Shown one piece after another: positions 29,340 through 53,019 of a stretch of DNA of 64,000 nucleotides; the stretch's first letter is position 1; each line of letters starts with the position of its first letter. The DNA comes from an uncultured Chloroflexia bacterium (lineage in GTDB: Bacteria > Chloroflexota > Anaerolineae > Anaerolineales > UBA4823): positions 582,802 to 646,801 of the forward strand of contig CAWGGJ010000003.1 in the NCBI GenBank assembly GCA_963822175.1. The letters are read 5' to 3'. Both the position numbers and the translations under genes were made by a program. The notes under the pieces were generated by a model, which was not told where the DNA came from, made no database searches, and was given only the letters and a program-made list of their open reading frames with translations.

Positions 29340-29830
29340 GCCTGGTGAGCCTCGCGGCCACCTGCACAGTCTTTGTGCGGATCCCTTCAGCGAGGAGCGC
29401 ACTGTGCAATTTAGCCTCGCGAAGTGTTTTTCAAGCGAGGCTGGGAGGGGGTTGGTTTCTTATTCCATCCATCTACACCGCCGATGGATGAATCCACCGT
29501 CTACCAAAACCACGAAACCCGCTCAGCGGGTTTTCTTACATTAGCCGATGGATTTTATCCATCGGCACTCCTCCCCTACTTCCGCATTTTGAAATTTAAA
29601 TCCCAAATGGTTTCATCGGGTGTGGGGAGGTTGGGTGAGCTTCGCGGCCACCTGCACGGTCTTTGTCCGGTTCACTTCACCGAGCAGCGTACTGTGCAGA
29701 ATCCCGAGGAAATTGAGGAGACGAAGCCTCGTGAAATGTTTCCCGAGCGAGGTGAGGCAGGGGCTCTTCCTCCCTCTCCAAATGCTGGCTTTACATTTGG
29801 GGAGGGCTGGGCAAGCCTCGCGGTCCATTC
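29340..29830. repeat. Mosaic hairpin-repeat locus A
   Basis: Contains two copies of the GGTGAGCYTCGCGGCCACCTGCAC...ACTGTGCA module (29343-29410, 29633-29700). Hairpins: 29481-29499, GAAACCCGC-TCA-GCGGGTTTTC (29513-29535), GCCGATGGAT-TTT-ATCCATCGGC (29544-29566) and CCAAATG...CATTTGG (29770-29800 region). Confidence 0.85.
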
Positions 29831-30686: not shown

Positions 30687-30810
30687 AACGCACCCTGCTA
30701 AGCGTTAGGTTGGAAGAATAAATCATTGATTACATCAATATTTCCCTCCATAAACGTCTTCCCAAATGCCTTCGCCAGTGGATTCAACAACCGGTGTGGT
30801 GCTGATGTTC

Positions 30811-31006
30811 TTTTTTGGGGGATTATCATCAAGGTTGTTCTTTGCCCGCAGCATCGCGAACGATTTGTGTGAGCGAGGTACGATGAGCGGTTTATGCGAA
30901 GAAGCAATCTTCTCCACAACTTAATGAATTCACATTCTGCATAAACCACGAAACCCGCCCTGCGGATTTTCTATCATTAGCCTGAGGATTATATCCATCA
31001 GCTAGC
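30811..31006. repeat. Mosaic hairpin-repeat locus B
   Basis: Colinear with 33125-33300 and with the reverse complement of 41492-41650: TTTTTGG..ATCATCAAGG...GCATCGCGAACGATTTGTGTGAGCGAGGTACGA.GAGCGGTTT.TGCGA...GCAATCTTCT...TGCATAAACCACGAAACCCGC. Confidence 0.85.
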
Positions 31007-31091
31007 CGTGACCCGTCTGCTGGTTTCTTTTTCCTCCATTTACCATAGCACTCAATACGGTGTATATTATCCATAACAGGCCCAAATAATT

Positions 31092-33074: not shown

Positions 33075-33605
33075 AACACTTCCTCTCCAAATGCCGGTTT
33101 TGCATTTGGGCAGGGCTGCTGTCCTTTTTTGAGGTGTCATCGAGGGTGACCTTTACCCGAAGCATCGCGAACGATATGTGTGAGCGATGTACGAGGAGCG
33201 ATTTTTGCGACCAAGCCCCGAGTAATGCGAGGGGGTGGCAATCTTCTTCATAATTATTCGAATCCACCTTTTGCATAAACCACGAAACCCGCAGGGGACA
33301 TAAAAAATATTGTCATTGCGAATGCCTGGCGAACTTCCAGGCATGTGGCAATCTTCTTCATAGTTATCTGAAACCACCGCTGTGGAAATAAACGAATGCC
33401 GCATGACCGCTTTCGACGGTGGATGAATCCACTGTCTGCTTAAACCACAAAACCCGCACAGCGGGTTTTCTAGCACTAGCCGATGGATTTTATCCATCGG
33501 CACAGGGTATTAATCCCCCCTGCGAAGGATGGGTGAGCCTCTCAGCCACCTCCACGATCTTGGTGCGGTTCCCTTCTGCGAGGGAGCTGCCTGCATCCTG
33601 CTCCT
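33075..33605. repeat. Mosaic hairpin-repeat locus C
   Basis: CCAAATGC-CGGTTTT-GCATTTGG (33087-33109). Module colinear with locus B (33125-33300). GCCTGG-CGAACTT-CCAGGC (33323-33341). Three-hairpin block 33415-33501 nearly identical to 29481-29566. GGTGAGCC...CACC module at 33530-33600. Confidence 0.85.
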
Positions 33606-33807: not shown

Positions 33808-36800
33808 TCAACCGGGCAGTGCATTCCTCAAGCCAGCTCTTGGGCGGTAGCGTAACATGTCGCGCTGCAGACCACGCTGACGGGCAGCCTCGACGTCCTC
33901 TTCTGGCAGGTCGGCTGAGGCGGAGGTTACATACTGCCCGACAATTTTCTCCATCCATGGACTGACTTTCCAGATCGGATCATCCAACACCAGCGTGTAG
34001 AGCTCAACGGCTTGGACTGCCCGGCCTTCTCTGGCCAGGATCAAAGCCATGGCTGCCAGAGAATGCTTGAGAGCATGATGTGCGCGGGTTTTCACCGAAA
34101 TCTGCAGGGCTTCAACAAGGGCAACTATTAGCTGACTTCGGCCATGCCCAGTGTAGTAATGGATGTTCGCCAGCACTGCCAGCGCCCAGCCCAGCTCGTC
34201 TTGGTGACCCACCTGGCGATATAGATTAACCGACTCTTGCATGAGGTCATGCGCATCCAGGATTTCGCCCTGCGCCAGGGCACATCCGCCCAAGATCGAA
34301 TTTCGATAAAGCCATCTCTCTTCGTAGACCGTTTTCTAGCGCAAACTGCAATCCCATCTGTGTATAATATTTGACCTGATCATACTTTCCATGTAGCATC
34401 TTACCTAATCCGATAACCATATAAACAAAGGTGGAATTATAGCGATCACCCAGGTCTTGATACAATGGGAGACTTTGTTGCAACAAGCGGAAGGATTCAT
34501 CAAATTGGCCTTGCCAGACCAAAAGCCGGCCCATCCACATCAGCCCATCAGCCATGCTGCGCTTTATCGCCGATCGATTGATTTATCGCCAACGACTCAC
34601 GCATCAGGGATACGCATTTCTCAAGCAAACCAACCCGGCTAAAATTAAAAGCCAGCCAGGTAAGCGCATAAGCCAACCCGCGCTGGTCGTCCATAGCCCT
34701 GCGCATGGCAATACATTCCATCAATGGCTCGGTCGCCTCAGCATAATCCCCCGAATGCTGTAGGTTGATCCCCAGATCCACCAAGGCAGCTGCCAGGTGC
34801 CATTTGTCACCGATCTGCCGATAAAGCTCTACGCTCCTCTGCAGGTGCTCACGTGCCAGTTTGAGGTCAGCAGTAAATATGGCTTCGCCGGCTTCCAGCC
34901 AGATAAAAGCCTGTAAACGACGGACATCCTGGCCTGGCGATTCCAGGCGGCTGGCAAGTTCCACGGCTTCCTCCCACTGCTGGTGAGCAGGTTCAAGCTC
35001 ACCCAGCAATCGACTGAAGCGACTCTGCCAGATGTGCAGATGCGCTTGCAGGAAGCAAGATTGCGGGTTATCGGCACCTGCCAATCCATATACAACAGCC
35101 CTGGCAAGCACTCTGTCCTTCTTTAAAACGGGCACTGAGCTCATAATACAGGCACAACCCCTCCAGCCCATTGGTTAAAGGGTCGATCTCAGCCTGTTGG
35201 CAAGCCCAATCCCAGGCTGCCCGCACATCGTTGATCTGCTTATCCGCCTGTGCCAGCATGGCGATTTGCCCTGGTCCTTTGAACAAACTACTCCATCCAG
35301 TTGCTATCCTGAGGAAATATTCACTATGTGTCTGCCTGGTTGCCCTTTCCAATCCATCCTCAGCAAGGGTCAGCTTTTCCTGGCTGTACTGACGCACAAG
35401 ATCATGCATTTGATATTGGCCTTCAGATGTACTCCCCAATAAACTCTTGCCCACCAGCGCATGCAACACCTTCGGGGTGGCATCTGCCACTTCAAACGCG
35501 GCTTGCGCACTGAAGGCATTTCGGAAAACTGATAATTTCATCAGAACCTGCTTTTCGGGTAGACTGAGCAGGTCCCAGGAATATTCAAAGGTCGCTCGCA
35601 GGCTGCGCTGGCGTGCCGGCAAGTCCGCCCACTCCACCGATAGGAAGTCCAGGCTGCGCTCGATCTGCTCGGCGATCTCCCGTGTCGGATATTCGCCCAC
35701 CCAGCTGGCTGCCAGGATCAGGCTGAGCGGCATGCCCTCCACCACCCGGCAGATTTGGGCAATCCCCTCCAGGTCCTCGGGGAGATAACCCGGTTTCACC
35801 CGCCGAGCTGCCTCCAGGAACAGTGCCACTGCACTGTAGTCCAACACCTGTTTTACATCTATGGGTGGAATATTCATCCCTTTAATTGGGTACACCTGCT
35901 CCCCGCTCAATTCCAGCCTCACCCGGCTTGTCACCAGCAGCTTGCTTCCCGATGAAGCCACCAGTATCTCTGCCACCAGTCCTGCACTCTCCGTCACTGT
36001 CTCAAAACTGTCAAGCACTAGCAGCAACTTCTTGTTGCGTAGGTAGTCCAGTAGCTGCTGTTGGTGCTCCCCTTTTTCTCGGAAGTTGAAGCCCAATCTC
36101 TCCGCCAGGGCTGAGAGCAGCGAGCTACCCGTCCCAAGGGCAGATAGCGGAACGAAATACACCCCATCCGCGAAGTGATAGCGTTGCCGATGGGCGATCT
36201 CGAGTGCCAGGCGTGTCTTACCACTGCCACCCGTTCCCAGGATGCAGATCAGCCTGTGCCCGGGGTCGACCAGCCAGCCCCATAGCTCGGTCAGCTCTGT
36301 CTTCCGCCCGATGAAGGGCGTCAGGCTGGCGGGTAAATAGCCTGGTTCGGTCCCGGCTTGCTCGTTGCGCAGGCGCTGGTAAAGCAATCTGCTCTCCTGG
36401 CCTGGCTCGGCTCCCAGCTGTATGGCCAGTGTCTGGCGGAATGATCCATATTGCTCCAGTGCCTCCTCCCGCCGGCCCAAGAGAGCCAGCAAGCGTATAA
36501 TATGAGCATTGCCGGCCTCCCCCAGGTCGTCCAGCACCACCATCTTTTGCGCATACCTGAGGGCGTGGTCCAGCTCTCCCTGCTGTTCGAATGCCACCAC
36601 CAGGTTATCCAGCACCTCCATCACATCCAGGCGCAGCTGCTCGCGCAAGCACGGTAGCCCATTCCTCAAATCCCAGGCTCTTCGGCAGGTAAAACCCATC
36701 CAGGAAATCCCCAGCATACAGCTGGGCTGCCTCCTGGTAACGCTTCAAGCATTCTTCACATACTTTTTTTGGGGGATGGGCATGCGTTCTGCATGCATCT

Positions 36801-37174
36801 ACCAATCCTGAGAACTCAGCCACGTCCGTTATAAGATCACATTGTGGATTGAGCTGGATCTCCTGGGTGGTGACCAGCAGGCAGGGTTTGCGGGTCTGGT
36901 TGGTAGTTTCAACGGATAGGGTGCCTGCTTGCTCCCGATCGCCAAGGATACCTCGCAATTGGTACAGCGTCTGGCTCAAGCTGCCCCGGGCATGAGTTTC
37001 GTCAGACTCAGGCCAGAGCAAGCCAATCAGTTTTTCACGGGGGTGGGGATGATCTCTCTCAATTGCCAGGTATGCCAGCAAGGCACGCGCTTTATCGGAC
37101 TTGAGGTTGACCACAGAGTGTCCATCCATGCTCAATCTGTACAAGCCTAACAGCTTCAAGCTCAGGTGTGTCAT
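33808..37174 (-). pseudogene. SARP/AfsR-type regulator (winged-helix + BTAD + NB-ARC ATPase + TPR), split by 4 frameshifts
   Basis: Fragments are 36605..37174, 35068..36717, 34548..35171, 34247..34555 and 33808..34293. The first carries OmpR-type wHTH and the BTAD start (ARALLAYLAIE...LIGLLWPE...YAGDFLDGF). The second carries the rest of BTAD plus the Walker A motif ILGTGGSGKTRLA and LLVLDSFE. The last three are TPR repeats. Sequence continuity across each junction was checked by hand. Confidence 0.85.
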
Positions 37175-40839: not shown

Positions 40840-41148
40840 GGGAGACAGGAAATCATTCTCGATTTTCGTTCTTATAAATAATAATCGGTATCGGTGTGAG
40901 AATTTCATCCATCACGCAAGCTCCTTCTTCCTGCATTTTTGGGATGGAATGAGCATAAGACTAAAACATGATCATGATGCAATGACCCGGCTTCCCAGCC
41001 ACGATAATCAGAGGAACCGATGAATGGGTATGATCAGGGCAGTGATAACTTGTCGGTTCAATCGGCTGTTTGTTTTATTAACCAGGATGACGCTAATATA
41101 TGTTTCTAAATTTATCCAAAACCTCTTCCCCTCTTTTCCTTAAACCCC

Positions 41149-41176
41149 TTGTGGATTAGAACATTTGTGCTATAAT
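41149..41176 (+). promoter_or_regulatory. Promoter-like head of element D (extended -10)
   Basis: TTGTGG (41149-41154), 16-nt spacer ending in TGC, then perfect TATAAT (41171-41176). Identical to 50924-50951. Confidence 0.5.
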
Positions 41177-41746
41177 AAGGGTGCGTGAAACACATCCGAA
41201 ACCGCGAGCGTTCTTTGCGAGGGGTGAGGTGCGATCTTTGCACCCCCTGTCGCGAACGCTCTTTGTGAGCGAGAAACCGCGAGTGCAGGGTTCTTCCCGA
41301 AACCTTGAGCGTTCTTTGCAAGAGGCGTTCTTTGTCCGCAGTGTCGCGACCGTTTTTTGGGAGCGATACGAGAGGCATTTTTTGGGAGCGAAGCAGTCGC
41401 GAGGGCTTTATACGAGCGATCCAGAAACCAATGCCAAAATCTCATTTCTCCACCCTCTCGTTAATGGATCATCCACCTGCTGTTCACCAGCAACCCGCAA
41501 AGCGGGTTTCGTGGCTTTTGCAGCCGGTGGATTCATCTTCCCGAGGAGAAGATTACAACGTCGCAAAAACCGCTCCTCGTACCTCGCTCTCACAAATCGT
41601 TCGCGATGCTTCGGGAAAAATGCACCCTTGATGACACCAAAAATAATCTCCAAACCCGCAAAGCGGGTTTCGTGGCTTTTGCAGCCGGTGGATTCATCCA
41701 CCGGCACAGGATTATCTATGATAATGATATCTTTCACCAGCGGAAG

Positions 41747-41966
41747 CTGGCAGCGTTTATCTGTGGTTAAAGGTTTTACCTTTTTTAATCAATGTTTTTC
41801 ATCTGTGTGCATCTGTATTTATCTGTGGTTCAAGGTTTTATCTTTATAAATAAGAGGTTTCCATCCGTGTGCATCTGCGTTATCTGCGGTTAAAGGTTTT
41901 ATCTTTATAAATAAAAGTTTTTCATCCGTGTGCATCTGCGTTTATCTGCGGTTAAAGGTTTTATGG
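41747..41966 (+). repeat. Tandem units with phased ATCTGYGK 8-mers (element D)
   Basis: Four units (one partial) of the form GTTTTTCATCTGTGTGCATCTGTATTTATCTGTGGTTCAAGGTTTTATC plus an AT-rich spacer. Ten 8-mers are mostly spaced 10 nt apart. Confidence 0.9.
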
Positions 41967-41996
41967 CACGAATTGAATCCATTTGTATCCCTAAAA

Positions 41997-42400
41997 CTAT
42001 TCAAATGTGGTGGTCCAATTAAACTGGACACAAAAATGGCTTATCTTAGGGGGATGTCTGCTCCACTCTTCGAATTCGACCGGTGTCAGATATCCCAATG
42101 ATGAATGGATGCGTGTTGTATTACGCACATCCCTCAAGAAACGACCAATCTGGCGATACGTATTTGCATAGTTTTGATAATCTGACCAATCCACCTCCTC
42201 TTCTTTGATCGTGCGTATCAAGCGCTCGTCATACCCAGTTTCCCAAGTCTCACTTTTGGTAGACATATTGATCTGCACATGCCGGGCGTGTAAAGCATTC
42301 GCTTACTCAAGTGTCGCTTAATGGATACCCTGGGTACTGACGTGGATCATCCTCTCATAAAATAAGTGGTAAGCGTAATAACGAATCGTCGTTTTCTAAA
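41997..42400 (-). mobile_element. IS3-family transposase (rve/integrase core) 3' remnant, pseudogene
   Basis: Track ORF 41997..42278 encodes ...GYDERLIRTIKEEEVDWSDYQNYANTYRQIGRFLRDVRNTTRIHSSLGYLTPVEFEEW, a typical IS3 OrfB C-terminus. Upstream, the same frame reads LFYERMIHVSTQGIH-stop-ATLE-stop-ANALHARHVQINMS. There are two in-frame stops and no N-terminal half. Confidence 0.8.
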
Positions 42401-44420
42401 TTAATCCTTGATTAATGCCTCACTATATATGATAATATTACAAGCATATTCAGGGGAATATAGAAATGTGTAGTTTGGTTTTTCTTGAATTGTTGGGGTT
42501 GACTAGCCTAAATAAATTGGGACTGCAATGCGCCACCAATCTCGCCTTATACATCACTCTAGTCAGTTATTTTCTCTTTTTCTACGAGTAGATATGAGTT
42601 TTTATCCACCAGCATTAGATAAGGTTTGAGATTTTCTAGAGCGTATCAAAAGGGAGGTCGAAAATGTCTAAAAGTAAGCTGATCTTTCAGGGGGTTATTT
42701 TGCTCATTGCTGTTCTCATCTCCCCTATTCCTATTATTTCCGCAAGTCAACCCAGCCTTGTTGATCAACCCGGGGTGAATGGAAATGGGAATCCCGCATC
42801 CCCTCGACCAACCCTTTTCACTTTTACATCCAAAGCGGATAGCTATGTTGATCAACAGAATCCCACCACAAATTACGGCAAAGCTTACAACATAAGCGTA
42901 GCCAGCTTTCCCACAAAAAATGCATATCTGAAGTTCAACGTCACCGGTTTTTCTGGTGTCATTAAGCAAGCCATATTGCAGGTTTATGCAACCAATAAAT
43001 CGAATGCCATCATTTCAGTACGTGGGGTTGCAAACAACGACTGGGATGAATATTCGATTACATATTCCAACGCGCCTTCCCTTTCACGTATCATTGCAGG
43101 CTCGTCAAAGAAAATCACAAATCCAGGGTGGGTTTCCATTGATATCACCGCACTTGTAAGGGATACCGGTGTAGTTAGTATTGGCTTGACTTGTACCAAT
43201 GAAGTAATGACGAATCTCATGAGCCGGGAAGCGGGCTTGAATCAGCCAAAACTGGTTGTTTATGTCTATCCTTCTGGCACATCGACCCCCACAGCAACCT
43301 CCACCCCTACGAAAACGTTAACACCCACACCTACAAATACACCGACACCCACGGATACACCTACTGCAACAGCCACTCCTACAGACACTACCACTCCCAC
43401 TGTCACCTACACCCCGACTCCCACCGATACTTTTACTCCAACCCCCACAAGCACATATTCCCCAACACCCACCGACACATATACCCCGACCCCTACCGCT
43501 ACAGAAACCCCTACACCAACCGACACTAATACTCCCACCCCCACCAACACAACCGAACCTACACCTGACCCGATCATAGATCACTGCGGCACAATTTCTG
43601 CGGATGAGACCTGGCAGGCTGGTGACGTTCACCGGATAACCTGCACTGTCTCGGTAAACCAGGGGGTCACCCTGACCTTATCCCCAGGCGCGATTGTGAA
43701 GTTCATGAGCGAAACGGGTTTATTTGTGGATGGTAACATTGTTGCGAATGGGACGACGGAAGACCAAATTCACTTCACCAGCTATAAGGATGACAGTGTG
43801 GGTGGGGACAGCAACGAAGACGGGAACACCAGCAGTCCGGCTCCCGGTGATTGGGCTGAAATTTGGTTATATGGCACGGGTAATCTCAATCTCGATCATG
43901 CTATCGTCCGCTACGGAGGCGGTAGTCTTAGCTGGGAACACGGCACGATCATGGCTTACCTGACCAGTTCTCCCAGTGATGGTGTTACTGCCTCCATCAG
44001 TAACAGTGTCATTGAGCATAATACTGATGATGGGGTTTATCTTCGCGACGAGGACGCAACTACCCTTTCCAACTTATCGATTAACAGCTCCGTTATCCGT
44101 AACAACGGTCGTAATGGTGTTAGCACACAAGGCGTTGGGAGTGTTTTACTCGCTAATAACGTCCTCTCCAATAATGGGGCTACATATATAGGTTCCGCGG
44201 CTTTAATCTATGCTCAGACAGCCATCGTAAGTGGCAATACCTTTACCAATAACCCTTCTGGATTGTCTCTGGGAGCTGACAGTATCACACTGACAGATAA
44301 TCTATTTATCGATCAGACCTATGAGCACGCATTTATTAATTCAACGGATGACCTGATCTTCTATGGGAACAGTACCCATGGACAGCCACGCTTGTTCAAG
44401 TTGTATGGAGTCCATCTCAG

Positions 44421-46063
44421 ATGATGTCACCCTCGATTCTGCCATCCAGGTGTATGAGCTCGGATTGAGTGTCAATCCCGGAGCAACCCTGACCCTCCTT
44501 GAAGGCGTGCTTGTGAAATTATCAGAAAATTACAGCTCCAATCTCACAATTTTCGGTACCTTAAACATCCAGGGGACAGAGTCCAATCCTGTCGTGATCA
44601 CGTCATTGAAAGACGATACATACGGCGGAGACACGAATAATGACGGAGCCTCCACCTCACCGGCTCCCGGTGACTGGGGTGAAATTTGGCTATATGGCAC
44701 AAGTAATCTCAATTTCGCTCATGCTATCATTCGCTATGGAGGCGGTAATCTTAGCTGGGAACACGGCACGATCATGGCTTACCTGACCAGTTCTCCCAGT
44801 GATGGTGTTTCGGTTTCCATCAGTAACAGTGTCATTGAGCATAATACTGATGATGGGGTTTATCTTCGCGATGAGGATCCTACCACCCTTTCCAACTTAT
44901 CGATTACCAACTCCACGATCCGTAACAACGGTCGTAATGGTGTTGGCGCACAAGGCGTTGGGAGTGTTTTACTCGCTTATAACGTCCTGTCTGAAAATGG
45001 ATTAGTTTATCCAGTTTCAGCGGCTGCAATCTATGCTCAGACAGCCATTGTAAGTGGTAATACCTTTTCCAATAACCCTTCTGGATTGTCTCTGGGAGCT
45101 GATAGTATCACATTGACAGATAATCTATTTATCGATCAATCCTATGAGCATGCATTGATTAATTCCTATAATAACCTGATCTTCTATGGGAACAGTACTT
45201 CTGGCCAGCCACGCTTGTTCAAGTTGTATGGAGTCATCTCAGGTGATGTCACCCTCGATTCTGCCATCCAGGTGTATGAGCTCGGATTGAGTGTCAATCC
45301 CGGAGCAACCCTGACCCTCCTTGAAGGCGTGCTTGTGAAGTTATCGGAAAATTACAGCTCCAATCTCACAATTTTCGGTACCTTAAACATCCAGGGGACA
45401 GAGTCCAATCCTGTCGTGATCACGTCATTGAAAGACGATACATACGGCGGAGACACAAATAATGACGGAGCCTCCACCTCACCGGCTCCCGGTGACTGGG
45501 GTGAAATTTGGTTATATGGCACGAGTAATCTCAATTTCGCTCATGCTATCATTCGCTATGGAGGCGGTAATCTTGGTTGGGAACATGGTGCGATCATGGC
45601 TTACCTAACTGGATTCTCCAGTGATGGTGTTTCGGTTTCCATAGTAACAGTGTCATTGAGCATAATACTGATGATGGGGTTTATCTTCGCGATGAGGATC
45701 GCTACCACCCTTTCCAATTTATCGATTACCAACTCCACGATCCGTAACAACGGTCGTAATGGTGTTGGCGCACAAGGCGTTGGGAATGTTTTACTCGCTT
45801 ATAACGTCCTGTCTGAAAATGGATTAGTTTATCCGGTTTCAGCGGCTGCAATCTATGCTCAGACAGCCATCGTAAGTGGTAATACCTTTTCCAATAACCC
45901 TTCTGGATTGTCTCTGGGAGCTGATAGTATCACATTGACAGATAATCTATTTATCGATCAATCCTATGAGCATGCATATGATTAATTCCTATAATAACCT
46001 GATCTTCTATGGGAACAGTACTTCTGGCCAGCCACGCTTGTTCAAGTTGTATGGAGTCATCTC
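44421..46063 (+). repeat. Two near-identical ~822-bp modules (modules 2 and 3 of the RHS N-terminal region)
   Basis: The landmark TTGTATGGAG recurs at 44401, 45223 and 46046. Modules 2 and 3 differ by only a handful of substitutions and indels. Module 1 (~43600-44420) and module 4 (46064-~46640) are more diverged. Confidence 0.9.
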
Positions 46064-47260
46064 AGGTGATGTCACCCTCGATTTGCCATCCAGGTGTATG
46101 AGCTCGGATTGAGTGTCAATCCCGGAGCAACCCTGACCCTCCTTGAAGGCGTGGTTGTGAAGTTACCGGACAGGCGAGCTCCAATCTCACAATTTATGGT
46201 AACCTTAAACATCCAGGGGACAGAATTTAAATCCTGTCGTGATCACGTCTTTAAAAGACGATACATACGGCGGAGACACAAATAATGACGGAGCCTCCAC
46301 CTCACCGGCTCCCGGTGACTGGGGTGAAATTTGGTTATATGGCACGGGTAATCTCAATCTTGATCATGCCATTGTGCGCTACGGAGGCGGTTATCTTGGT
46401 TGGGAACATGGCACGATCACTGCCTATATAACCTTATACCCAAGTGATGGTGCTTCGGTTTCCATAAGTAACAGTGTCATTGAGCATAATTTATATGATG
46501 GAGTATTTCTGCACGATGAGGACGCGACTACCCTTTCCAACTTATCGATTACCAGCTCCACGATCCGCAACAACAATTGGAATGGAGTTACCACCGAAGG
46601 CATAGGGATCGGATTTGCCATAATAAGAGGAAGCTCAATATATAATAGCGCAGGATATGGCGTTTACAATGGAAATATTAGTAATGGTTTCGACGCCCGC
46701 TATAACTACTGGGGCTCGGACAATGGTCCTGCTCCTTATGGTCAAGGGGATGCCATCAACACGTACCAGGAGTGGGATCCCATTTGCGAATGTGTCGTCA
46801 CTAAACCAGCAGTGATATTCACCCCTCCGCTGGATTCTTCCGGTCAGATTGTCGGTCCACCACCCGCCCAGACTTACGGCACCCCCTCCACCACCACGAG
46901 CATTTCAGTGGCTGACCCCGTCAACGTGGTTTTCGGCAACTACACCTACCAGTATACCGACCTGGCTTTCCCGACACTGGGTGAGGGCTTTACCTTCCTG
47001 CGTACCTACAACTCCGCCAGCACTGATTTTGGTCCGCTAGGCTTAGGCTGGACGCATAGTTATGACATCTTCGCCACCCAACCCACCACCAACACGGTCG
47101 TTATCCTGCGCGAGGATGGACGCAAGGACATGTACACCGATGCGGGTGGAGGCAATTACCTGTCACCCCCCGGCGTCTACGACACATTACGCTTCGTCAC
47201 CGACCACTTCGTGCTCACCCGCAAAGACCAGGCGGTCTATTCTTTAACCCGGATGGCACA

Positions 47261-50200
47261 TTGGCTAGCCTGGCCGATCATACTGGTAACACAACGGCAT
47301 TTTCTTATTCAGGTGGCAACCTGGTCTCACTCACCGAGCCCGCCGGTCGACAGGTCACTTTCACTTATTCAGGGAACCTGCTTACACAGATCAGCGATCC
47401 TCTTGGACGCACAGTCAGTTTTAGTTACACCGATAGCTTGTTGACCAGCGTGACCGATGTCAATGGTCATAGCACCACCTATGCCCACGATGGTTCTGGT
47501 AAGCTGGAGTCGATCACCGATGCCAACGGTCATACATTTGTCCACAATTTCTACGATACCGAAGGGCGCGTGGTTGAGCAGCGCGATGCGCTGAATAACC
47601 TGACCACATTCTCTTATGATCCCACTACACGCATCAACTCGGTCACCAACCCGCTTAATTTCACCACCCTTTACCAGTATGACAGTGCCTATCGCCTGGT
47701 CTCTGAGACTGACCCTTTAGGTTATACCCAATCGTATGCCTTTGACGCCAACAACAACCAGATCAGCGCCACCGATAAGCGCGGTAATACCACCACTTTC
47801 AGCTATGATACCCGCGGTAATGTCCTCACCATCACCGCTCCTCTGGGAGTTGTCCGAAGCTTCAACTATGATGATCATAACAACCTGCTCACCGAGACCG
47901 ATCCGCTCAGTCATTCAACCAGCTATGCTTATGATGGAGCAGACAACCTAACCAGCATCACCGATGCTTTGAATAACACCTCCACATTTACCTATAACTC
48001 TTTGGGGCAGGTGCTCGCCTCCACTGGTCCACGCGGGTACACAGCCTCCTTCGGCTATGATGCCTATGGTCACCAGGATAGCCTCACCGATTATTATGGA
48101 AATGAAACTACCTTCATCTTTGATATCGTCGGACGCAAGCTGAGCCAGACCGACGCCCTGGGGCATACCACCACTTACTCGTATGATAATGCCAACCATT
48201 TGTTGACGGTTGATGAGCCAATGGGTCGCTCAACCAGCTACACCTATGACCTGGTCGGGAACCGCCTGTCTGTTACCGACCCAATGGGTGGCAACACTGC
48301 CTCCACCTACGATGCCAAGGACCGCATGGTAACGGTCACTGACCCCTTAGGACATGTCACCACCTATGGCTATGATGCGCTCAACAACCAGGTCTCCATT
48401 ACGGATGCATTGGGGCACGTCACCACCTTCGAGTATGATGCCCTTAACCGCAATATCTCCACGATTGATCCGATGGGGCATACCACAAGTTCCCAGTATG
48501 ACCCGGATGGCAACCGCACCCAGTTAATTGATGCTAATGGTAACAGCACCTATTATGTTTATGATCAGCTCAGTCGCCTGACCTCTGTTACCGACGCTGC
48601 TGGTGGGACTGTGAGCTACACTTATGACATGGTCGGCAATCGCCTCTCCATGATGGATGCCAACTCTCACACCACCAGCTACACCTACGATGCTCTGAAC
48701 CGGTTGGCAACCTTCACAGATCCCTTGAGCTTTGTCACCAGTTATACCTATGACCAGGCGGGCAACCGCATCACCTGGAATAAGCCTGATAATTCCACCG
48801 TCCATTACACCTACGACCGGCTTGACCGGCTGGAAACAGTGACTGCCACGGGGATCAACATCAGCTACACCTACGATGAGCTGGGGAACCGCCTTACTTT
48901 GGTCAATTCAACCGGCACCACCAGCTACACCTATGACGATCTGAACCGTTTGGTCGAGGTCGTCAACCTGCAAGGCAATCTGGATTATGCCTACGATCTC
49001 AACAATAACCGCACCTCGTTGACGTACCCGGATAGCAAGACTGTCATCTATACCTATGACCCGGCAAATCGTTTGATCACCGTAACGGACTGGGCTTCTC
49101 AAATCACGACCTATAGCTATGATTACACCAACCTGCTGACCGGGATCGCCTACCCCAACGATGTTGTTGCCAGCTATGCATATGACGAAGCCAGCCGTCT
49201 GATAAGCATTGGGTACACCGGGCCTGCTCCCTTGGAATCCTTCAGCTATACCCTGGATGCGGTCGGGAACCGGCTGAGCATGGCTGACGCAGATGGGAAC
49301 ACCAGCTATACCTACGATGTTCTATACCGTCTCACCGGTGTCAGTTATCCAGTTGGATCCCCTGCCAGTGTCAATTATGCCTACGATCCAATGGGCAACC
49401 GGCTGAGCATGACTCAGGATGGTGCTACCACAGCATATACTTACGATGCAGTGGATCGGCTGTTGTCCACTGATACCAGTGGAATGGTCACCAGCTTCAC
49501 CTGGGATAATAATGGCAATATGCTCACCAAGGGGGGCCAGTCCTTCACTTGGGATGCCCTTAATCGCATGGTCGCCTGGACAGATGGCACGAACACATCC
49601 AGCTATACCTACAACGGTGATGGTGTGCGCCTAGGTCGGACAGTGAATGGTTCAACCACAGCATATCTGCAGGATCTGGCTGCTGGTTTGCCCGTGGTAC
49701 TGAGAGAGACCACTTCAGGCGTGAACACAGATAATGTTTATGGAAATGACTTGATCACCTCCATCGATAGCAGTGAAATTTCCTCCTTTTACCATACCGA
49801 TGGACTGGGCAGCACGCGCCTGCTGACCGATAATAGCAGTGCTGTCACCGACCGCTACAGCTACGATGCCTTTGGTTCACCTCGCACCCATGCCGGCTCG
49901 AGCACCCAGCCCTTCACCTTCACCGGCGAGCAGGTCGACCCCGAGGCAGGTCTGGTGTTCTTGAGAGCAAGATATTATGATCCAAGAACTGGCAGATTTA
50001 TTAGCTCTGATCCATTTTTTGGAGACATTATTCTCTCCCAATATATAAATCGCTACACATATACACATAATCGACCAATAATTACCACAGATCCTAGTGG
50101 TAAGTTTCCTCTCATCGTTTTAATTGGTGGTGGAATAGTTGTATATAAGGTGGGTAATTATGTTGTAAACTACGTTGATTCTTATATTAAAGCAATTTCA

Positions 50201-50602
50201 TATAATTCGTTTAAGCAATCTATGTGGAATGCGACAGACGCAGAAACAGCTAGCTATTATCAGTTCAAAGCTGCAGAATATAGTCATGAATTTACACAAT
50301 CTGTAAAGAAAGATACACTTCCTCCATATGGCACATCAATGAACTTTAGCCCAGTTCCTCAAAGCTTTTCGGAAGTGGATGCAATCGGTAGAATTATTAC
50401 CTTTGTAGAAGAAAATACCTTAAAATTTACTGATTGGTTATTTAGTCAAAATAGAGGAGATGTAAAAGGTGAAATGACTGAAAATTTGTATCAAGGGGAG
50501 TCTTCTATTCAAAGATCTCAACTTGAAATAAATTTCTATGGTTCTGCCTTGGGAGCAAGAGGAGGCGTGTATTTTGGTATCCCAGCTAGCCATGGAAAAT
50601 AG
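47261..50602 (+). CDS. RHS repeat-associated core fragment with C-terminal tip (largest intact piece of the toxin gene)
   Basis: 1113-aa ORF with dozens of YD repeats (e.g. TYSYDALNRL, YTYDELGNRL). Core end FLRARYYDPRTGRFISSDPF...NRYTYTHNRPIITTDPSG is followed by ~165 aa of unrecognised sequence. Its true 5' continuation is in ORF 46239..47444. Confidence 0.9.
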   Translation: MASLADHTGNTTAFSYSGGNLVSLTEPAGRQVTFTYSGNLLTQISDPLGRTVSFSYTDSLLTSVTDVNGHSTTYAHDGSGKLESITDANGHTFVHNFYDTEGRVVEQRDALNNLTTFSYDPTTRINSVTNPLNFTTLYQYDSAYRLVSETDPLGYTQSYAFDANNNQISATDKRGNTTTFSYDTRGNVLTITAPLGVVRSFNYDDHNNLLTETDPLSHSTSYAYDGADNLTSITDALNNTSTFTYNSLGQVLASTGPRGYTASFGYDAYGHQDSLTDYYGNETTFIFDIVGRKLSQTDALGHTTTYSYDNANHLLTVDEPMGRSTSYTYDLVGNRLSVTDPMGGNTASTYDAKDRMVTVTDPLGHVTTYGYDALNNQVSITDALGHVTTFEYDALNRNISTIDPMGHTTSSQYDPDGNRTQLIDANGNSTYYVYDQLSRLTSVTDAAGGTVSYTYDMVGNRLSMMDANSHTTSYTYDALNRLATFTDPLSFVTSYTYDQAGNRITWNKPDNSTVHYTYDRLDRLETVTATGINISYTYDELGNRLTLVNSTGTTSYTYDDLNRLVEVVNLQGNLDYAYDLNNNRTSLTYPDSKTVIYTYDPANRLITVTDWASQITTYSYDYTNLLTGIAYPNDVVASYAYDEASRLISIGYTGPAPLESFSYTLDAVGNRLSMADADGNTSYTYDVLYRLTGVSYPVGSPASVNYAYDPMGNRLSMTQDGATTAYTYDAVDRLLSTDTSGMVTSFTWDNNGNMLTKGGQSFTWDALNRMVAWTDGTNTSSYTYNGDGVRLGRTVNGSTTAYLQDLAAGLPVVLRETTSGVNTDNVYGNDLITSIDSSEISSFYHTDGLGSTRLLTDNSSAVTDRYSYDAFGSPRTHAGSSTQPFTFTGEQVDPEAGLVFLRARYYDPRTGRFISSDPFFGDIILSQYINRYTYTHNRPIITTDPSGKFPLIVLIGGGIVVYKVGNYVVNYVDSYIKAISYNSFKQSMWNATDAETASYYQFKAAEYSHEFTQSVKKDTLPPYGTSMNFSPVPQSFSEVDAIGRIITFVEENTLKFTDWLFSQNRGDVKGEMTENLYQGESSIQRSQLEINFYGSALGARGGVYFGIPASHGK

Positions 50603-50923
50603 TGTCTATTCAACAAGATAAATCCTATAATCGACTCGAATTATTATTAACTAACCTTTTTGGTAAATAAAGGCAGGTTTAGTGCCGTTACTACTTAGAA
50701 CTATTCGCAGTCTTTTATCCTTTACTTATTCCTCTCCTATTTTCGTAGAAAATGGTGGAGCTTGCAGTGTCGGCATGCTTTCACTAGCAGGTGGAACTTT
50801 TACCAAATAAATTACTATTATAAACTGATCGTATGTCAGCCAATTCATTGTTTGTATCATGGCTTATCGCTCAAAGATCACCAACGCCCTTTCATTAGAA
50901 ACCTTAAATTAATCATAACACTC

Positions 50924-50951
50924 TTGTGGATTAGAACATTTGTGCTATAAT
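50924..50951 (+). promoter_or_regulatory. Promoter-like head of element E (extended -10)
   Basis: TTGTGG (50924-50929), 16-nt spacer ending in TGC, then TATAAT (50946-50951). The block 50923-50960 is identical to 41148-41185. Confidence 0.5.
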
Positions 50952-51412
50952 AAGGGTGCGCTCTTTGCACCTAAAACCGCGAGCTTCCTTTGCGAGGGGT
51001 GAGGTGCGATCTTTGCACCCCCTGTCGCGAACGCTCTTTGTGAGTGAGAAACCGCGAGTGCAGGGTTCTTCCCGAAACCTTGAGCGTACTTTACGAGAGG
51101 CGTTCTTTGCGAGTGGTGATGTGCGCTCTTTGCACCCCCTGTCGCGAACGCTCTTTGTGAGCGAGAAACCGCGAGTGCAGGGTTCTTCCCGAAACCTTGG
51201 GCGTCCTTTGCGAGAGGCGTTTATACAGTGTCTTCATGGATTCACTGCTTTACCCGCTGTCGCGAAGGCTTTATACGAGCGATCCAGAAACCAATGCCAA
51301 AATCTCATTTTTCCACCCTCTCGCTATTGGATCACCCACCTGCTCTTCACCAGCAACCCGCAAAGCGGGTTTCGTGGCATTTTCAGCCGGTGGATGAATC
51401 CACCGGCTGAAG

Positions 51413-51684
51413 CTGGCAGCGTATATCTGCGGTTAAAGGTTTTATCTGTTTACTTAACGGGTTTTCATCTGTGTATATCTGTGTTTATCTGTGGTTAATG
51501 GGTTTTATCTTTTTACATAGCGGGTTTTCATCTGCGTTTATCTGCGGTTAAAGGTTTTATCTATATATATAATAGGTTTCCATCCGTGTTCATCTGCGTA
51601 TATCTGCGGTTAAAGGTTTTATCTTTTTTTATAACGGGTTTTCATCTGTGTATATCTGTGTTTATCTGTGGTCAAAGATTTTAT
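51413..51684 (+). repeat. Tandem units with phased ATCTGYGK 8-mers (element E), 200 bp upstream of dnaN
   Basis: Five units, for example GGGTTTTCATCTGTGTATATCTGTGTTTATCTGTGGTTAATGGGTTTTATC plus an AT-rich spacer. Twelve 8-mers in total. Confidence 0.9.
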
Positions 51685-51885
51685 GGCACGAATTGAATCC
51701 ATTTGTTTCCTTAATTCAATTCAAATATTCCCTTCCCTTCCACCTTCCTCCCATGAGCCTGCTCAACTTTTCACCCTCATCCCGCACAGTTCTCCCCGAT
51801 TACTGGAAAATTTCCGCCTATCGTTGTATACTCAGAGCACGCTTGAGCGCTCTCTACGCGCTCCCAACCGAGGAGAAGTTCTGAT

Positions 51886-53019
51886 ATGAGAGTAACCGTC
51901 CTGCAAGAGAATCTGGCTCACGGCCTGAGCATCGTCTCGCGTGCCGTATCCCCCCGCAGCACCCTGCCCGTGCTGGCCAACGTCCTCGTCGCCACCGATG
52001 AAGGTCGCTTGCGCCTATCCGCCACCAACCTTGAGTTGGGCATCACCTGTTGGATCGGTGCCAAGATCATCGAGGAAGGCTCCACCACCGTCCCCGCCCG
52101 CACCTTCAACGACCTTGTTGCCACCCTCCCCGCTGACCAAATTGAGATGACTCTCAACGTCCGCAACCAGAAGCTGAACATCCGTTCCGCCGCATCCAAC
52201 ACCGATATCAACTGCATCGATTCCCAGGAATTCCCTCCCATGCCCACGCCGGACCTATCGGATGCCATCCCCATCAACGTGACTGAGCTGAAGGAGATGA
52301 TCCAGCAGGTGGCGTTTGCCGCCTCCACCGATGAAGCCCGCCCGGTGCTTACCGGCGTTTTGCTCTCTGCCCAGGGTAACCAGATCACCATGCAGGCGGC
52401 TGACGGTTTCCGCCTCTCCATCCGTAAGGCTGAGCTCTCCTCCGCCCTTCCCCGTCCGATCAAGGCCATCATCCCCGCCCGCGCCCTGGCCGAGCTGGCT
52501 CGCGTCGCTGGCGATGGCGACACCACCGTCACCATGGTCCTGCCTCCCAATCGCGGCCAGGTCATCTTCCACATGAAGGATGTCGAGCTGGTCTCCCAGC
52601 TCATTGAAGGCTCCTACCCCGACCTGGAGCAGGTCATCCCCCGCTCCCATCAGACCCGCACCGCCATCTCCACCCCGGCAATCCTCAAAGCCTGCAAGCA
52701 GGCAGAGATCTTTGCCCGTGAGGGCACCCACATCGCCCGCATCCAGATCACCCCCGGTGTCGATAACCAGCCGGGTACAGTTGAGATCTCCGGCCAATCC
52801 GAGGAGACCGGCTTCAACCAGACCGTGATCGATGCCAACATCGAGGGGAGCGGTTTACTCATTGCATTCAACGTGCGCTTCCTGCGCGAAGTCCTCGACG
52901 TGATCAAGACCCCCAACGTCATCCTTGAGACCAATATTGAAACCACACCCGGCGTATTCAAACCCGCCGGTGAGGATAACTTCCTGCACGTCATCATGCC
53001 CATGCACCTGGGTGGTTAA
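51886..53019 (+). CDS. dnaN: DNA polymerase III beta sliding clamp
   Basis: 377 aa with GAGGAG RBS. N-terminus MRVTVLQENLAHGLSIVSRAVSPRSTLPVLANVLV...LRLSATNLELGI. C-terminus ...FLHVIMPMHL. Confidence 0.95.
   Translation: MRVTVLQENLAHGLSIVSRAVSPRSTLPVLANVLVATDEGRLRLSATNLELGITCWIGAKIIEEGSTTVPARTFNDLVATLPADQIEMTLNVRNQKLNIRSAASNTDINCIDSQEFPPMPTPDLSDAIPINVTELKEMIQQVAFAASTDEARPVLTGVLLSAQGNQITMQAADGFRLSIRKAELSSALPRPIKAIIPARALAELARVAGDGDTTVTMVLPPNRGQVIFHMKDVELVSQLIEGSYPDLEQVIPRSHQTRTAISTPAILKACKQAEIFAREGTHIARIQITPGVDNQPGTVEISGQSEETGFNQTVIDANIEGSGLLIAFNVRFLREVLDVIKTPNVILETNIETTPGVFKPAGEDNFLHVIMPMHLGG

Follow-up and report, generated by a model that had tools for sequence, protein, structure and literature searches.

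The window, a 64,000-nt stretch of an uncultured Anaerolineales contig (CAWGGJ010000003.1), carries two non-coding elements, D (41148-42006) and E (50923-51726), that bracket a transposase remnant and an RHS-family toxin locus with nothing else in between (Table 1), as a sequence-only reading had described. The remnant contains a 93-aa rve_3 fragment on the minus strand (41997-42278; Pfam rve_3, E = 4e-6), and its terminal sequence is presumably an IS3-type end. The RHS locus encodes CBM96 and beta-helix repeats, DUF6531, 18 RHS repeats, and a C-terminal domain. The same reading had called this gene decayed; the frame breaks are present, but decay is uncertain, as the C-terminal frame of 1113 aa is intact. 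They fall within near-identical 822/823-nt tandem repeats, where assembly indels could account for them.

In the window, about 29 kb of lineage-specific DNA (22522-51885) separates the glutamate dehydrogenase gene (GDH) from dnaN, and the RHS locus takes up the final 10 kb of it. In six contigs from five relatives (dnaN product 89-92% identical), the GDH-dnaN distance is 0.4-2 kb. Across relatives, this interval is hypervariable over its full extent. The RHS locus is absent from the relatives compared, and their best match to the S8 peptidase is not close (70% identity).

Table 1. Features of elements D and E and of the adjoining DNA
Feature	Position	Strand	Content and basis
D head, promoter-like core	41139..41176	+	-35 TTGTGG 41149-41154; 16-nt spacer; extended -10 TGcTATAAT 41168-41176; predicted start near G41183; exact core match in related MAGs and IMG/VR
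D leader	41183..41491	+	CGCGA/CTCTTTG-rich hairpin stretch; 4 GYTCTTTG, all sense; one 117-nt unit
D-specific insert	41492..41650	-	inverted ~145-nt B/C-type module (hairpins, GGTGGAT..ATCCACC, AAACCCGC hairpin); alignment
D terminator-like hairpin and palindrome	41653..41705	+	AAACCCGCAAAGCGGGTTT (then CGTGGCTTTT), then palindrome GCCGGTGGATTCATCCACCGGC; repeat family D15; terminator-like-site scan
D tandem array	41757..41964	+	62-nt units x 3.4; 9 ATCYGYG motifs
D tail	41965..42006	+	GGCACGAATTGAATCCATTTGT...ATTCAAAT; palindrome with degraded second arm; adjoins the transposase remnant
DDE transposase remnant	42007..42290	-	last ~93 aa of integrase core (rve_3); putative terminal repeat TGTGGTGGTCCAATTAAACTGG
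RHS-family toxin locus	42664..50602	+	four reading frames
E head	50894..50951	+	distal box ATTAGAAACCTTAAA 50894-50908 plus promoter-like core; -35 50924-50929; -10 50946-50951; predicted start near G50958
E leader	50958..51354	+	two 117-nt units (~50974-51090, ~51091-51207); 5 GYTCTTTG, all sense
E terminator-like hairpin and palindrome	51355..51407	+	hairpin, then palindrome GCCGGTGGATGAATCCACCGGC; repeat family D15
E tandem array	51419..51684	+	periods 52, 62, 115 nt; 12 ATCYGYG motifs
E tail	51685..51726	+	palindrome GAATTGAAT (51690-51698) ... ATTCAATTC (51714-51722)
dnaN promoter-like site	51804..51832	+	TGGAAA, 17-nt spacer, TATACT

D and E can be aligned end to end and are real copies of one non-coding cassette. 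The 38-nt head is the same in both and occurs twice in the window against zero copies expected by chance; outside it, identity is 86-96% (95.6% in the 117-nt unit, 92.4% in the middle block, and 86.2% across the last units and the tail). This full-length alignment bears out the earlier description of a paralogous pair in direct orientation, and the duplication is, as proposed, not recent. Both structural differences noted at that stage are present: a 117-nt duplication in E (94% matches) and an extra inverted B/C-type module in D (~41492-41634). Searches of sequences other than the source genome recovered no further complete D/E body. A conserved distal box places the start of the E cassette further upstream than 50923. 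D lacks this box, and the D/E homology therefore begins within the cassette. The right end of D is imposed by the transposase remnant from ~42007 (TGTGGTGGTCC...), and need not be the original right limit of the duplicated segment.

The head is a ~70-nt promoter-like cassette. Its 24-nt core has 49 exact copies in ~16 related MAGs and three in IMG/VR contigs, and downstream of TATAAT the sequence is unrelated from one copy to the next. At least eight copies lie at contig ends, which fits a repeat at which assemblies break. Across 46 aligned copies, the segment from TAAACCYC to TATAAT is invariant, and both a distal box (ATGAGAAATCTTAAA) and a 36-nt core are conserved around ~20 variable nt, indicating that the head is under site-specific constraint rather than recently copied. 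At orthologous loci the head is identical although the genes are only 70-86% identical. On this sequence evidence, a conserved regulatory cassette appears to be the best explanation of the head, and the invariant spacer suggests a dedicated binding factor. Its promoter activity and the transcript ends are predictions. The -35 hexamer matches the consensus at only three of six positions (L011 has TTGACG there), and the head was not among the sites returned by a generic promoter scan.

Tails accompany the heads. Ten of 12 tail palindromes lie on the same strand as a head and within 1 kb downstream of it (binomial p = 3e-12), and heads and tails together form a dispersed cassette family with 5-10 members in each related genome, in varied contexts. 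What lies between head and tail changes from one genome to another even where the loci are orthologous. In other genomes, about 40% of heads point at the 3' end of a gene that runs toward them, leaving many cassettes without an obvious driven gene.

The leaders are marked by a strand-biased motif. All 13 copies of GYTCTTTG in the window are on the + strand (4.2 expected, both strands combined), and nine of them fall in the leaders of D and E. Within 700 nt after heads in other genomes, 81 copies of YGNTCTT are in sense and 23 in antisense (background 0.67 per kb). Enrichment after heads is 6.5-fold for hairpins with G-N-W-C-T-T-T loops, this 7-nt loop being common to hairpins with unrelated stems. 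Whole-leader folding beats shuffles only modestly (z about -2), with z-scores of -2.1 (sense) and -0.6 (antisense) for D and -1.9 for E.

The sense-strand bias and post-head enrichment, in the window and in other genomes, and the use of one loop on unrelated stems could also be explained if D and E were stand-alone non-coding RNA genes whose hairpin array titrates an RNA-binding factor, like a CsrB-like sponge, the downstream DNA repeats being incidental. Convergent genes lie opposite many cassettes, whose product could then be the RNA in its own right. One candidate factor would be NusB/NusE acting on boxA-like GYUCUUUG loops. BoxA is bound by NusB/NusE, and GYTCTTT equals the first seven positions of its consensus GYTCTTTAANA (PMC5725501); the boxA of this lineage may differ from that consensus. 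However, the AANA part is missing, Rfam gave no match, the folding z-scores are modest, and the head-tail modules vary even between orthologous loci, which is unusual for a conserved RNA gene. We consider this alternative unlikely.

Beyond the leader, the hairpin AACCCGC-AAA-GCGGGTT followed by GCCGGTGGAT..ATCCACCGGC occurs at 41492, 41653, and 51355 and is a putative terminator in D and E. The inverted insert of D belongs to the module family seen at 29.4, 30.8, 33.1, and 33.4 kb; its repeat I1 (143 nt) is 80% complementary to 30826-30968, and there are further pairs I2-I5. One inverted module in D indicates that modules are not strictly bound to the direction of transcription. In the tandem arrays, ATCYGYG motifs are spaced 10 bp apart within units that recur every 62 bp, as read from the letters. 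Clusters of this motif (ATC[TC]G[TC]G) were found only in D, E, and two viral contigs, L059 and L060, where the clusters immediately precede a TerS-like gene and keep the orientation to the head seen in D and E. Ten heads stand before TerS-like frames, which match phrog_1889 and NF040601 weakly; in L060, annotated in detail, the frame is followed by genes for a portal protein (1e-26), a GH25 endolysin, and a holin.

Short direct-repeat arrays phased by one helical turn are typical of phage cosB/pac sites and of plasmid or phage centromere iterons. The D and E arrays share the helical-turn phasing and, in L059 and L060, the position directly upstream of a TerS-like gene. The functional core of D and E might be the DNA array rather than a transcript: an orphan phage-type protein-binding array, such as a packaging signal (pac or cos), a centromere-like site, or a replication iteron. 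A protein encoded by a resident phage-like element, TerS-like or otherwise, would recognize it, which could allow the adjacent RHS region to be packaged or mobilized. The restricted occurrence of the clusters favors this idea, as does a 19-mer common to D, E, and L059/L060-type phage that is also present in other IMG/VR contigs and, in at least four (L062, L064, L069, L070), forms part of a 10-bp tandem array. However, neither a terminase nor other phage genes were found in the window, and no terminase or partition gene adjoins the arrays, unlike cosB/pac or centromere sites. The likeness to the phage region is at the level of motifs and is not significant by BLAST, other TerS-like loci do not contain the motif, high-GC phage contigs carry arrays in structural-gene regions away from terS, and the unit core has only chance matches in the JGI metagenome collection. 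We judge such a role to be improbable.

The sequence-only reading saw in the pair long direct repeats flanking an island or, alternatively, non-autonomous mobile units. Such an island could have arisen by Campbell-type integration of circular DNA that carried a copy of the element, and recombination between D and E could excise or amplify the RHS locus. The direct orientation, the purely mobile or accessory content of the D-E interior, the transposase remnant adjoining D, and the hypervariability of the GDH-dnaN interval all fit. A repeat of 0.8 kb at ~92% identity, as in D and E, is enough for RecA-mediated recombination. Recombination between copies, or Campbell-type integration, is a possible source of the flanking layout. 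However, the accessory region is the 29 kb between GDH and dnaN, not the 10 kb between D and E, and the D-E interval cannot stand as the whole island. It contains no integrase or att-like features. The homology starts within the head cassette, the upstream halves differing between D and E.

A transposon-like unit is not supported. No target-site duplication was found around D or E, and the proposed weak inverted-repeat relation between head and tail is not significant, as 7-12% of shuffles score equally. Target duplication as a source is not supported either, since 0.8 kb is far too long and the flanks have nothing in common. The search of related genomes for copies, which that reading had proposed, found heads and tails in many non-island contexts; they are not island-specific, and this dispersal is in essence what the reading itself had named as evidence against its island. 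On balance we find the island or mobile-unit explanation unlikely. D and E look more like transcription units assembled from shuffled repeat modules than like transposon ends or a boundary made for an island.

The place of E immediately before dnaN, together with its phased, AT-rich tandem repeats with TTATC-containing motifs, could point to E, and by duplication D, as all or part of the origin of chromosome replication. This assignment is disfavored and highly improbable: D and E each contain only two or three one-mismatch DnaA boxes without a cluster, GC skew keeps its sign, the motif cluster also occurs upstream of the TerS-like gene in viral contigs, and no E-like sequence was found upstream of dnaN in the relatives examined. 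An E-tail palindrome is present at the matching place in relative L053. The promoter-like site of dnaN itself is conserved in relatives and lies outside E.

The D/E family resembles several known systems in part. Processive antitermination signals of phages and rRNA include, besides boxA, lambda nut sites and the pR'-qut late promoter, in which Q binds between the -35 and -10 elements. The family would share with these a strong promoter with a conserved spacer and a long untranslated leader with repeated GYUCUUU, and its heads are used ahead of a phage packaging and lysis gene cluster. It differs from boxA in matching a 7-nt core only, with many copies in hairpin loops, and we identified no N-like or Q-like protein. 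Like the BOX elements of Streptococcus pneumoniae (boxA, a variable number of boxB, boxC) and similar modular intergenic repeats (PMC3049150), D and E are dispersed, non-coding, intergenic, and hairpin-rich, have fixed first and last modules around a variable number of internal ones, lack a transposase of their own, and would be transcribed with or beside neighboring genes. They are unrelated to BOX in sequence, their units exceed those of BOX in length (0.25-0.95 kb) and also occur in clusters of phage-like genes, the first module is a promoter-like cassette with an invariant spacer, and the internal modules come from many families and vary between orthologous loci too. The B/C-type modules at 29-34 kb match the description of REP/BIME mosaics and REPINs, palindromes of 20-40 nt in intergenic mosaics, often at gene 3' ends (PMC2817692, PMC3733652, PMC3116915); neither a REP-type GTAG or CGTC tag nor an associated RAYT transposase gene was established. 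The hairpins of the D/E family combine a common loop with differing stems. REP families show the reverse pattern, each consisting of copies of a single palindrome. Reused or "putative mobile" promoters likewise place a near-identical promoter-sized sequence before unrelated genes, within a genome and across species (PMC3575422). The heads, unlike these, persist at orthologous sites under site-specific constraint and have a characteristic leader and tail, so their identity is put down to conservation and not to recent movement.

Our preferred reading of D and E is a pair, duplicated or gene-converted, from a dispersed family of head-to-tail cassettes, and we regard this explanation as a whole as modestly probable. 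Each would be a diverged copy of a modular non-coding cassette dispersed in an uncultivated Anaerolineales clade, and most likely a transcription unit firing rightwards. A sigma-70-type promoter with extended -10 would drive an untranslated leader of 330-420 nt, containing short hairpins with sense-strand GYUCUUUG, up to a terminator-like hairpin (AAACCCGC/GCGGGUUU), followed by a DNA array in which ATCYGYG sites have 10-bp phasing and by a palindromic tail, with fast turnover of the modules between head and tail. We infer that duplication, or gene conversion with the conserved head as its anchor, gave rise to the pair, and that transposition did not. E would occupy an ancestral site upstream of dnaN, and D would be the second copy, later cut by the transposase insertion, both within a hypervariable accessory region. 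Judged by its modules, the family is a modular intergenic repeat that appears distinct from BOX in sequence and from REP in its hairpins, with a promoter-like first module.

A dispersed family of cassettes, which run from a promoter-like head to a palindromic tail, has one of its members present here in two copies, elements D and E. As the sequence-only reading had held, the pair is paralogous: the copies align end to end at 86–100% identity and stand in direct orientation, as direct repeats at both ends of the interval between them. The parts described for them are also present. The 38-nt head is the same in D and E (2 copies in the window at ≤3 mismatches, for a chance expectation of 0), a hairpin is followed by a palindrome, and tandem units recur with a period of 62 nt in D and of 52, 62, and 115 nt in E. 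E carries a 117-nt duplication, and D carries an extra inverted module with relatives at 29.4, 30.8, 33.1, and 33.4 kb. Identity declines from left to right, from 100% in the head through 95.6% in the 117-nt unit and 92.4% in the middle block to 86.2% in the last repeat units and tail. The conserved head cassette reaches ~30 nt farther upstream in E, where a distal box is found, and its upstream half in D differs from that in E. Because D is bounded on the right by the start of a transposase remnant (~42007), the duplicated segment itself may have had a different right end.

The interval between D and E holds a 93-aa rve_3 fragment on the minus strand and an RHS-family locus, and nothing else, in line with the earlier description. 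That description had also called the RHS gene decayed. The frame breaks are present, and decay is uncertain: the breaks lie within tandem repeats and, since they coincide with the switches of unit length from 822 to 823 nt and back, may stem from indels of the assembly instead.

Coordinates of the features in the window and in related loci (L-numbers)
Feature	Position	Description
Element D	41148 to ~42006	
Element E	50923 to ~51726	
Distal box of the E head cassette	50894-50908	
Hairpin, then palindrome	41492, 41653, 51355	
RHS-family locus		four reading frames; CBM96, beta-helix, DUF6531, 18 RHS repeats
822/823-nt unit	43801-46568	N-terminal part of RHS-family gene; four tandem copies, 87-100% identical
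Glutamate dehydrogenase gene (GDH)	21235-22521	
Accessory genes	22522-51885	~29 kb
dnaN	51886-53019	
NB-ARC/BTAD and TPR frames	34548-37174	minus strand; 35068-36717, 36605-37174, 34548-35171
~145-nt modules	29440-29600, 30800-31030, 33110-33300, 33380-33520	just 3' of plus-strand genes
Third AGAAC-N4-GTKCT site	13227	
~165-nt TerS leader	L010:90-275(-), L034:5295-5480, L050:2370-2555	
~165-nt TerS leader	L059:6410-6595(-), L060:7163-7348(-), L061:10094-10279(-)	
TTCGTTCCGWTTCGTTTT...CGAAT module	many loci, e.g. L012, L015, L017, L029, L030, L032, L046, L049	

We examined whether the elements carry the marks of mobile DNA. The suggested inverted repeat between head and tail proved insignificant, as the best local alignment of the head with the reverse complement of the tail spans 13 nt and is equaled by 7–12% of shuffles. 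The flanks of D and E have no common direct repeat, in a check for target-site duplication that is complete for E and limited at D, the right end of which is cut by the transposase remnant. The full D/E body was found in 2 copies, both in the window, and is absent from 52 head-bearing loci and from other relatives' loci. No match to D was found in deposited phages and plasmids, and a JGI metagenome scan with the 62-nt unit core gave three chance matches only, each single and AT-rich. With no significant terminal inverted repeat, no target-site duplication, and no multi-copy near-identical body, the proposal that each element is a non-autonomous mobile unit is not supported. D and E have no transposon hallmarks, and their shared body is, as far as the collections show, restricted to the source genome.

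The other proposal, an island bounded by the D and E repeats, is not supported by synteny: what is missing in relatives is the whole 29 kb, not the D–E interval alone. Among proteins of uncultivated Anaerolineales and Chloroflexota MAGs, identity to the dnaN product of the window reaches 95%. In 6 of 6 contigs from five relatives (dnaN product 89–92% identical), GDH lies 0.4–2 kb upstream of dnaN, and the gap contains small varying inserts, namely membrane proteins, a PIN toxin–antitoxin pair, or a small reading frame. In the window, this place is taken by the accessory genes, which include hydrolases, a DUF4256 protein, LVIVD-repeat proteins, an NB-ARC/TPR protein, an S8 peptidase, and the RHS locus; the D–E interval is the last 10 kb of this variable region. 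A close S8 peptidase was not found in any relative, the best match being 70% identical. Overall, the region upstream of dnaN looks like a hypervariable integration spot. A replication origin at D and E was considered and rejected: DnaA boxes do not cluster there, the GC skew does not switch, and relatives have nothing E-like upstream of dnaN.

Two further observations concern the accessory genes. The NB-ARC/BTAD and TPR frames overlap or split and may be one STAND-type regulator gene broken by frameshifts. The ~145-nt modules are composite and palindromic, made up of GGTGGATGAATCCACC, a hairpin AAACCCGC-N3-GCGGGTTTT, and GCCGATGGAT..ATCCATCGGC; they look like REP/BIME-type terminator modules, and D has one, inverted.

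Because the D/E homology begins inside the conserved head and identity drops away from it, the pair fits an origin by duplication or by gene conversion with the head as its anchor. A possible alternative for this direct-repeat pair is that the RHS locus came in by Campbell-type integration; no integrase lies within 41–52 kb. At L053, a relative's dnaN locus (dnaN product 93% identical), a tail palindrome stands before the conserved dnaN promoter at just the place where it does in E. The modules before it differ from those of E, and two further relatives have no tail there. Since L053 keeps the tail at E's place, the E site is the ancestral one for this sub-lineage, and of the two copies D is more likely to be secondary.

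The head can be read as a sigma-70-type promoter with a −35 TTGTGG, a 16-nt spacer, and an extended −10 TGcTATAAT, the −35 agreeing with the consensus at 3 of 6 positions only, for which reason a generic promoter scan passed over the head. In the GTDB set, 49 exact copies of its 24-nt core are spread over ~16 species-level MAGs, as many as 9–10 in one genome, and at least 8 of the 49 stand at contig ends; 3 IMG/VR contigs have the core as well. Directly after TATAAT, the copies split into unrelated classes. An alignment of 46 copies comprises a conserved distal box ATGAGAAATCTTAAA, ~20 variable positions, and an invariant TAAACCYCTTGTGGATTAGAACATTTGTGCTATAAT; this alternation of constrained and free positions indicates that selection, rather than recent copying, keeps the head. 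For several cassettes at orthologous loci in different species, the flanking genes are 70–86% identical at the DNA level and the head is identical. Some heads precede ordinary host genes, and ~40% face the 3′ end of a convergent gene. At the related locus L011, the copy reads TTGACG for the −35 and lies ahead of a 598-aa serine recombinase.

A LexA operator within the head is a possible lead. Its AGAAC-ATTT-GTGCT has one core mismatch, invariant and coinciding with the TG of the extended −10, to the SOS LexA operator consensus, which we take to be GAAC-N4-GTTC and from which the clade's own operator may differ. A third AGAAC-N4-GTKCT site lies outside a promoter context and is probably due to chance. 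Separately, L013, L019, L037, and L049 have insertions of tiny hairpins (~15–20 nt, e.g., TGGTCAAAGACCA and TCGAATGCTTTTCTCGA) that separate the distal box from the promoter core and leave both intact.

Downstream of the head, the leader is marked by a strand-biased motif. The 64-kb window has 13 copies of GYTCTTTG, none of them on the minus strand (4.2 expected, both strands together), and the leaders of D and E account for 9 of the 13, each in the sense direction. Within 700 nt after heads in other genomes, YGNTCTT is found 81 times sense and 23 times antisense, for a background of 0.67 per kb. Hairpins with such loops are 6.5-fold enriched after heads, and the 7-nt loop G-N-W-C-T-T-T is common to hairpins with wholly different stems. 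As the bias is for the sense strand and one loop recurs on different stems, these data point to a putative single-strand recognition in the direction of transcription. On the sense strand, folding of the whole leaders is modestly better than that of shuffles (z = −2.1 and −1.9), and on the antisense strand it is not (z = −0.6). The leader motif agrees with the boxA consensus GYTCTTTAANA (PMC5725501), which is gamma-proteobacterial and may not be this clade's, at the first 7 positions and not at AANA; we regard this possible likeness as a lead only.

A known RNA family was ruled out for D and E, as Rfam gave no match in the window at the gathering threshold, none at E ≤ 5 over 40.9–52 kb, and tRNAs only over 19 related loci. 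Coding was likewise rejected: Pfam gave no match for the frames that span D and E, and there is no remnant of a small-terminase-like (TerS-like) frame. Other modules were seen downstream of heads in related loci. Modules of 150–300 nt bounded by a perfect 12-nt inverted repeat, GTAATTACTCAC ... GTGAGTAATTAC, are present at L008, L018, L028, L035, L036, L040, L047, L052, and ~12 other loci, often with the same 6 nt (TAGAAT, CAGGAG, ATCAAG, or TAGACT) on both sides, and could be either module junctions or small insertion elements that have duplicated their target. Another recurrent module, TTCGTTCCGWTTCGTTTT plus 8–12 nt and CGAAT, often lies right before a gene start.

The motif of the tandem arrays recurs in viral contigs. 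Within each 62-nt unit, ATCYGYG motifs are spaced at exactly 10 bp, and across the ~543 kb of window and loci searched, groups of four or more are confined to D (9), E (12), and the viral loci L059 and L060. There, the cluster lies between the leader and a TerS-like gene, in the same orientation to the head as in D/E. A 19-mer common to these arrays is also found in other IMG/VR contigs, in at least four of which (L062, L064, L069, L070) it falls within a 10-bp tandem array; these phages are high-GC, and the arrays that can be placed do not adjoin a terminase gene. The D/E arrays look like candidate phage-type protein-binding iterons. Units of 10 bp of the GTTCATCTGC kind, which match the D/E array motif, are intergenic in the uncultivated phage genomes L062, L064, L065, L067, L069, and L070 (IMG/VR, 58–67% GC), with ~12 tandem copies in L070 and 3–4 in L062, L064, and L069.

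The E tail consists of the palindrome GAATTGAAT, 15 nt, and ATTCAATTC. Its motif GAATTGAATSCATTT (≤2 mismatches) occurs 12 times in related loci, and 10 of the 12 have a head on their own strand ≤1 kb upstream (binomial p = 3e-12, with 4.7% of the sequence qualifying). Because tails follow heads beyond chance, head-to-tail units of 0.25–0.95 kb are a recurrent architecture. The D/E cassette is most likely a rightward transcription unit, with a predicted order of promoter, hairpin leader, terminator-like hairpin, DNA-binding array, and palindromic tail.

Ten heads are located upstream of small TerS-like reading frames, which show weak but consistent matches to several small-terminase families; the TerS-like proteins of L059/L060 are of 117 aa and 149 aa. 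In L060, the TerS-like genes are followed by a large-terminase-like (TerL-like) gene, a GH25 endolysin, a portal protein (phrog_10963, 1e-26), and a holin. No terminase gene lies near D or E; a place beside a small-terminase gene, as for phage pac/cos sites, is seen for the motif cluster of L059/L060 alone, and by blastn and tblastx the head is the only sequence common to the window and the viral contigs. In three species, the flank upstream of the phage-like cluster is conserved. The cluster may occupy orthologous places in the chromosome, which would be in keeping with a domesticated phage-like or gene-transfer-agent-like cluster passed on by vertical inheritance.

Several features of these loci are worth recording. 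The fullest gene set of the cluster (TerS-like, TerL-like, endolysin, portal) is that of L060. The flank upstream of the head and TerS-like cluster in L004 is 67–76% identical in nucleotides to each of L034 and L050, the cluster genes of which are 71% identical to each other. L016, L021, and L045 each have a head, a hairpin leader, and a ~147-aa TerS-like frame as a stand-alone unit, away from any other phage gene, and in two of the three (L021 and L045) the frame is succeeded by a tail. A conserved structured leader of ~165 nt between head and TerS-like gene is closed by a 16-bp stem, GAACCCCUGGCACGGG / CCCGUGCCAGGGGUUC, with compensatory changes in 2 pairs only. An Rfam scan of this leader in L010, L034, and L050 gave no match.

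A broader reading, which we consider improbable, is that the head defines a clade-wide regulon common to host loci and a phage-like, possibly gene-transfer-agent-like, cluster with TerS-like, TerL-like, portal, and lysis genes. The cassettes would then be new portable transcription units with an invariant promoter/operator, boxA-like loop arrays that make long untranslated transcripts termination-resistant, and phased protein-binding iterons. If this were true, D and E would bring both the RHS toxin locus and the dnaN region into that phage-linked control, or tag the two for packaging.

The cassette resembles known systems in parts. Its architecture is similar to that of pneumococcal BOX elements (PMC3049150), a modular intergenic comparison, and of REP/BIME mosaics (PMC2817692), having 20–40-nt imperfect palindromes in a mosaic, intergenic arrangement; GTAG follows some CCGGTA hairpins in other loci. 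The head is similar to reused promoters (PMC3575422), and the leader motif has a possible likeness to boxA (PMC5725501), in the 7-nt core only. Unlike all of these, the cassette unites an invariant promoter-like head with a characteristic leader and tail, has hairpins alike in loops and not in stems, turns over its internal modules even at orthologous sites, and is also present in phage-like clusters.

For the window, these results describe an RHS locus without a dedicated mobile-element frame, in what looks like a hypervariable spot upstream of dnaN, between two copies of one common, putatively regulatory repeat. For this uncultivated Anaerolineales clade, they describe a promoter-sized sequence that is identical at paralogous and orthologous sites amid genes diverged to 70–86%, is followed by sense-strand hairpin motifs, and is shared with phage-like clusters. 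When such MAGs are assembled from short reads, the cassettes also cause breaks. The head, if a real promoter, would offer a phylum without genetic tools a strong promoter that is ready-made, and also a way into a co-regulated set of genes, among them a phage-derived packaging cluster.
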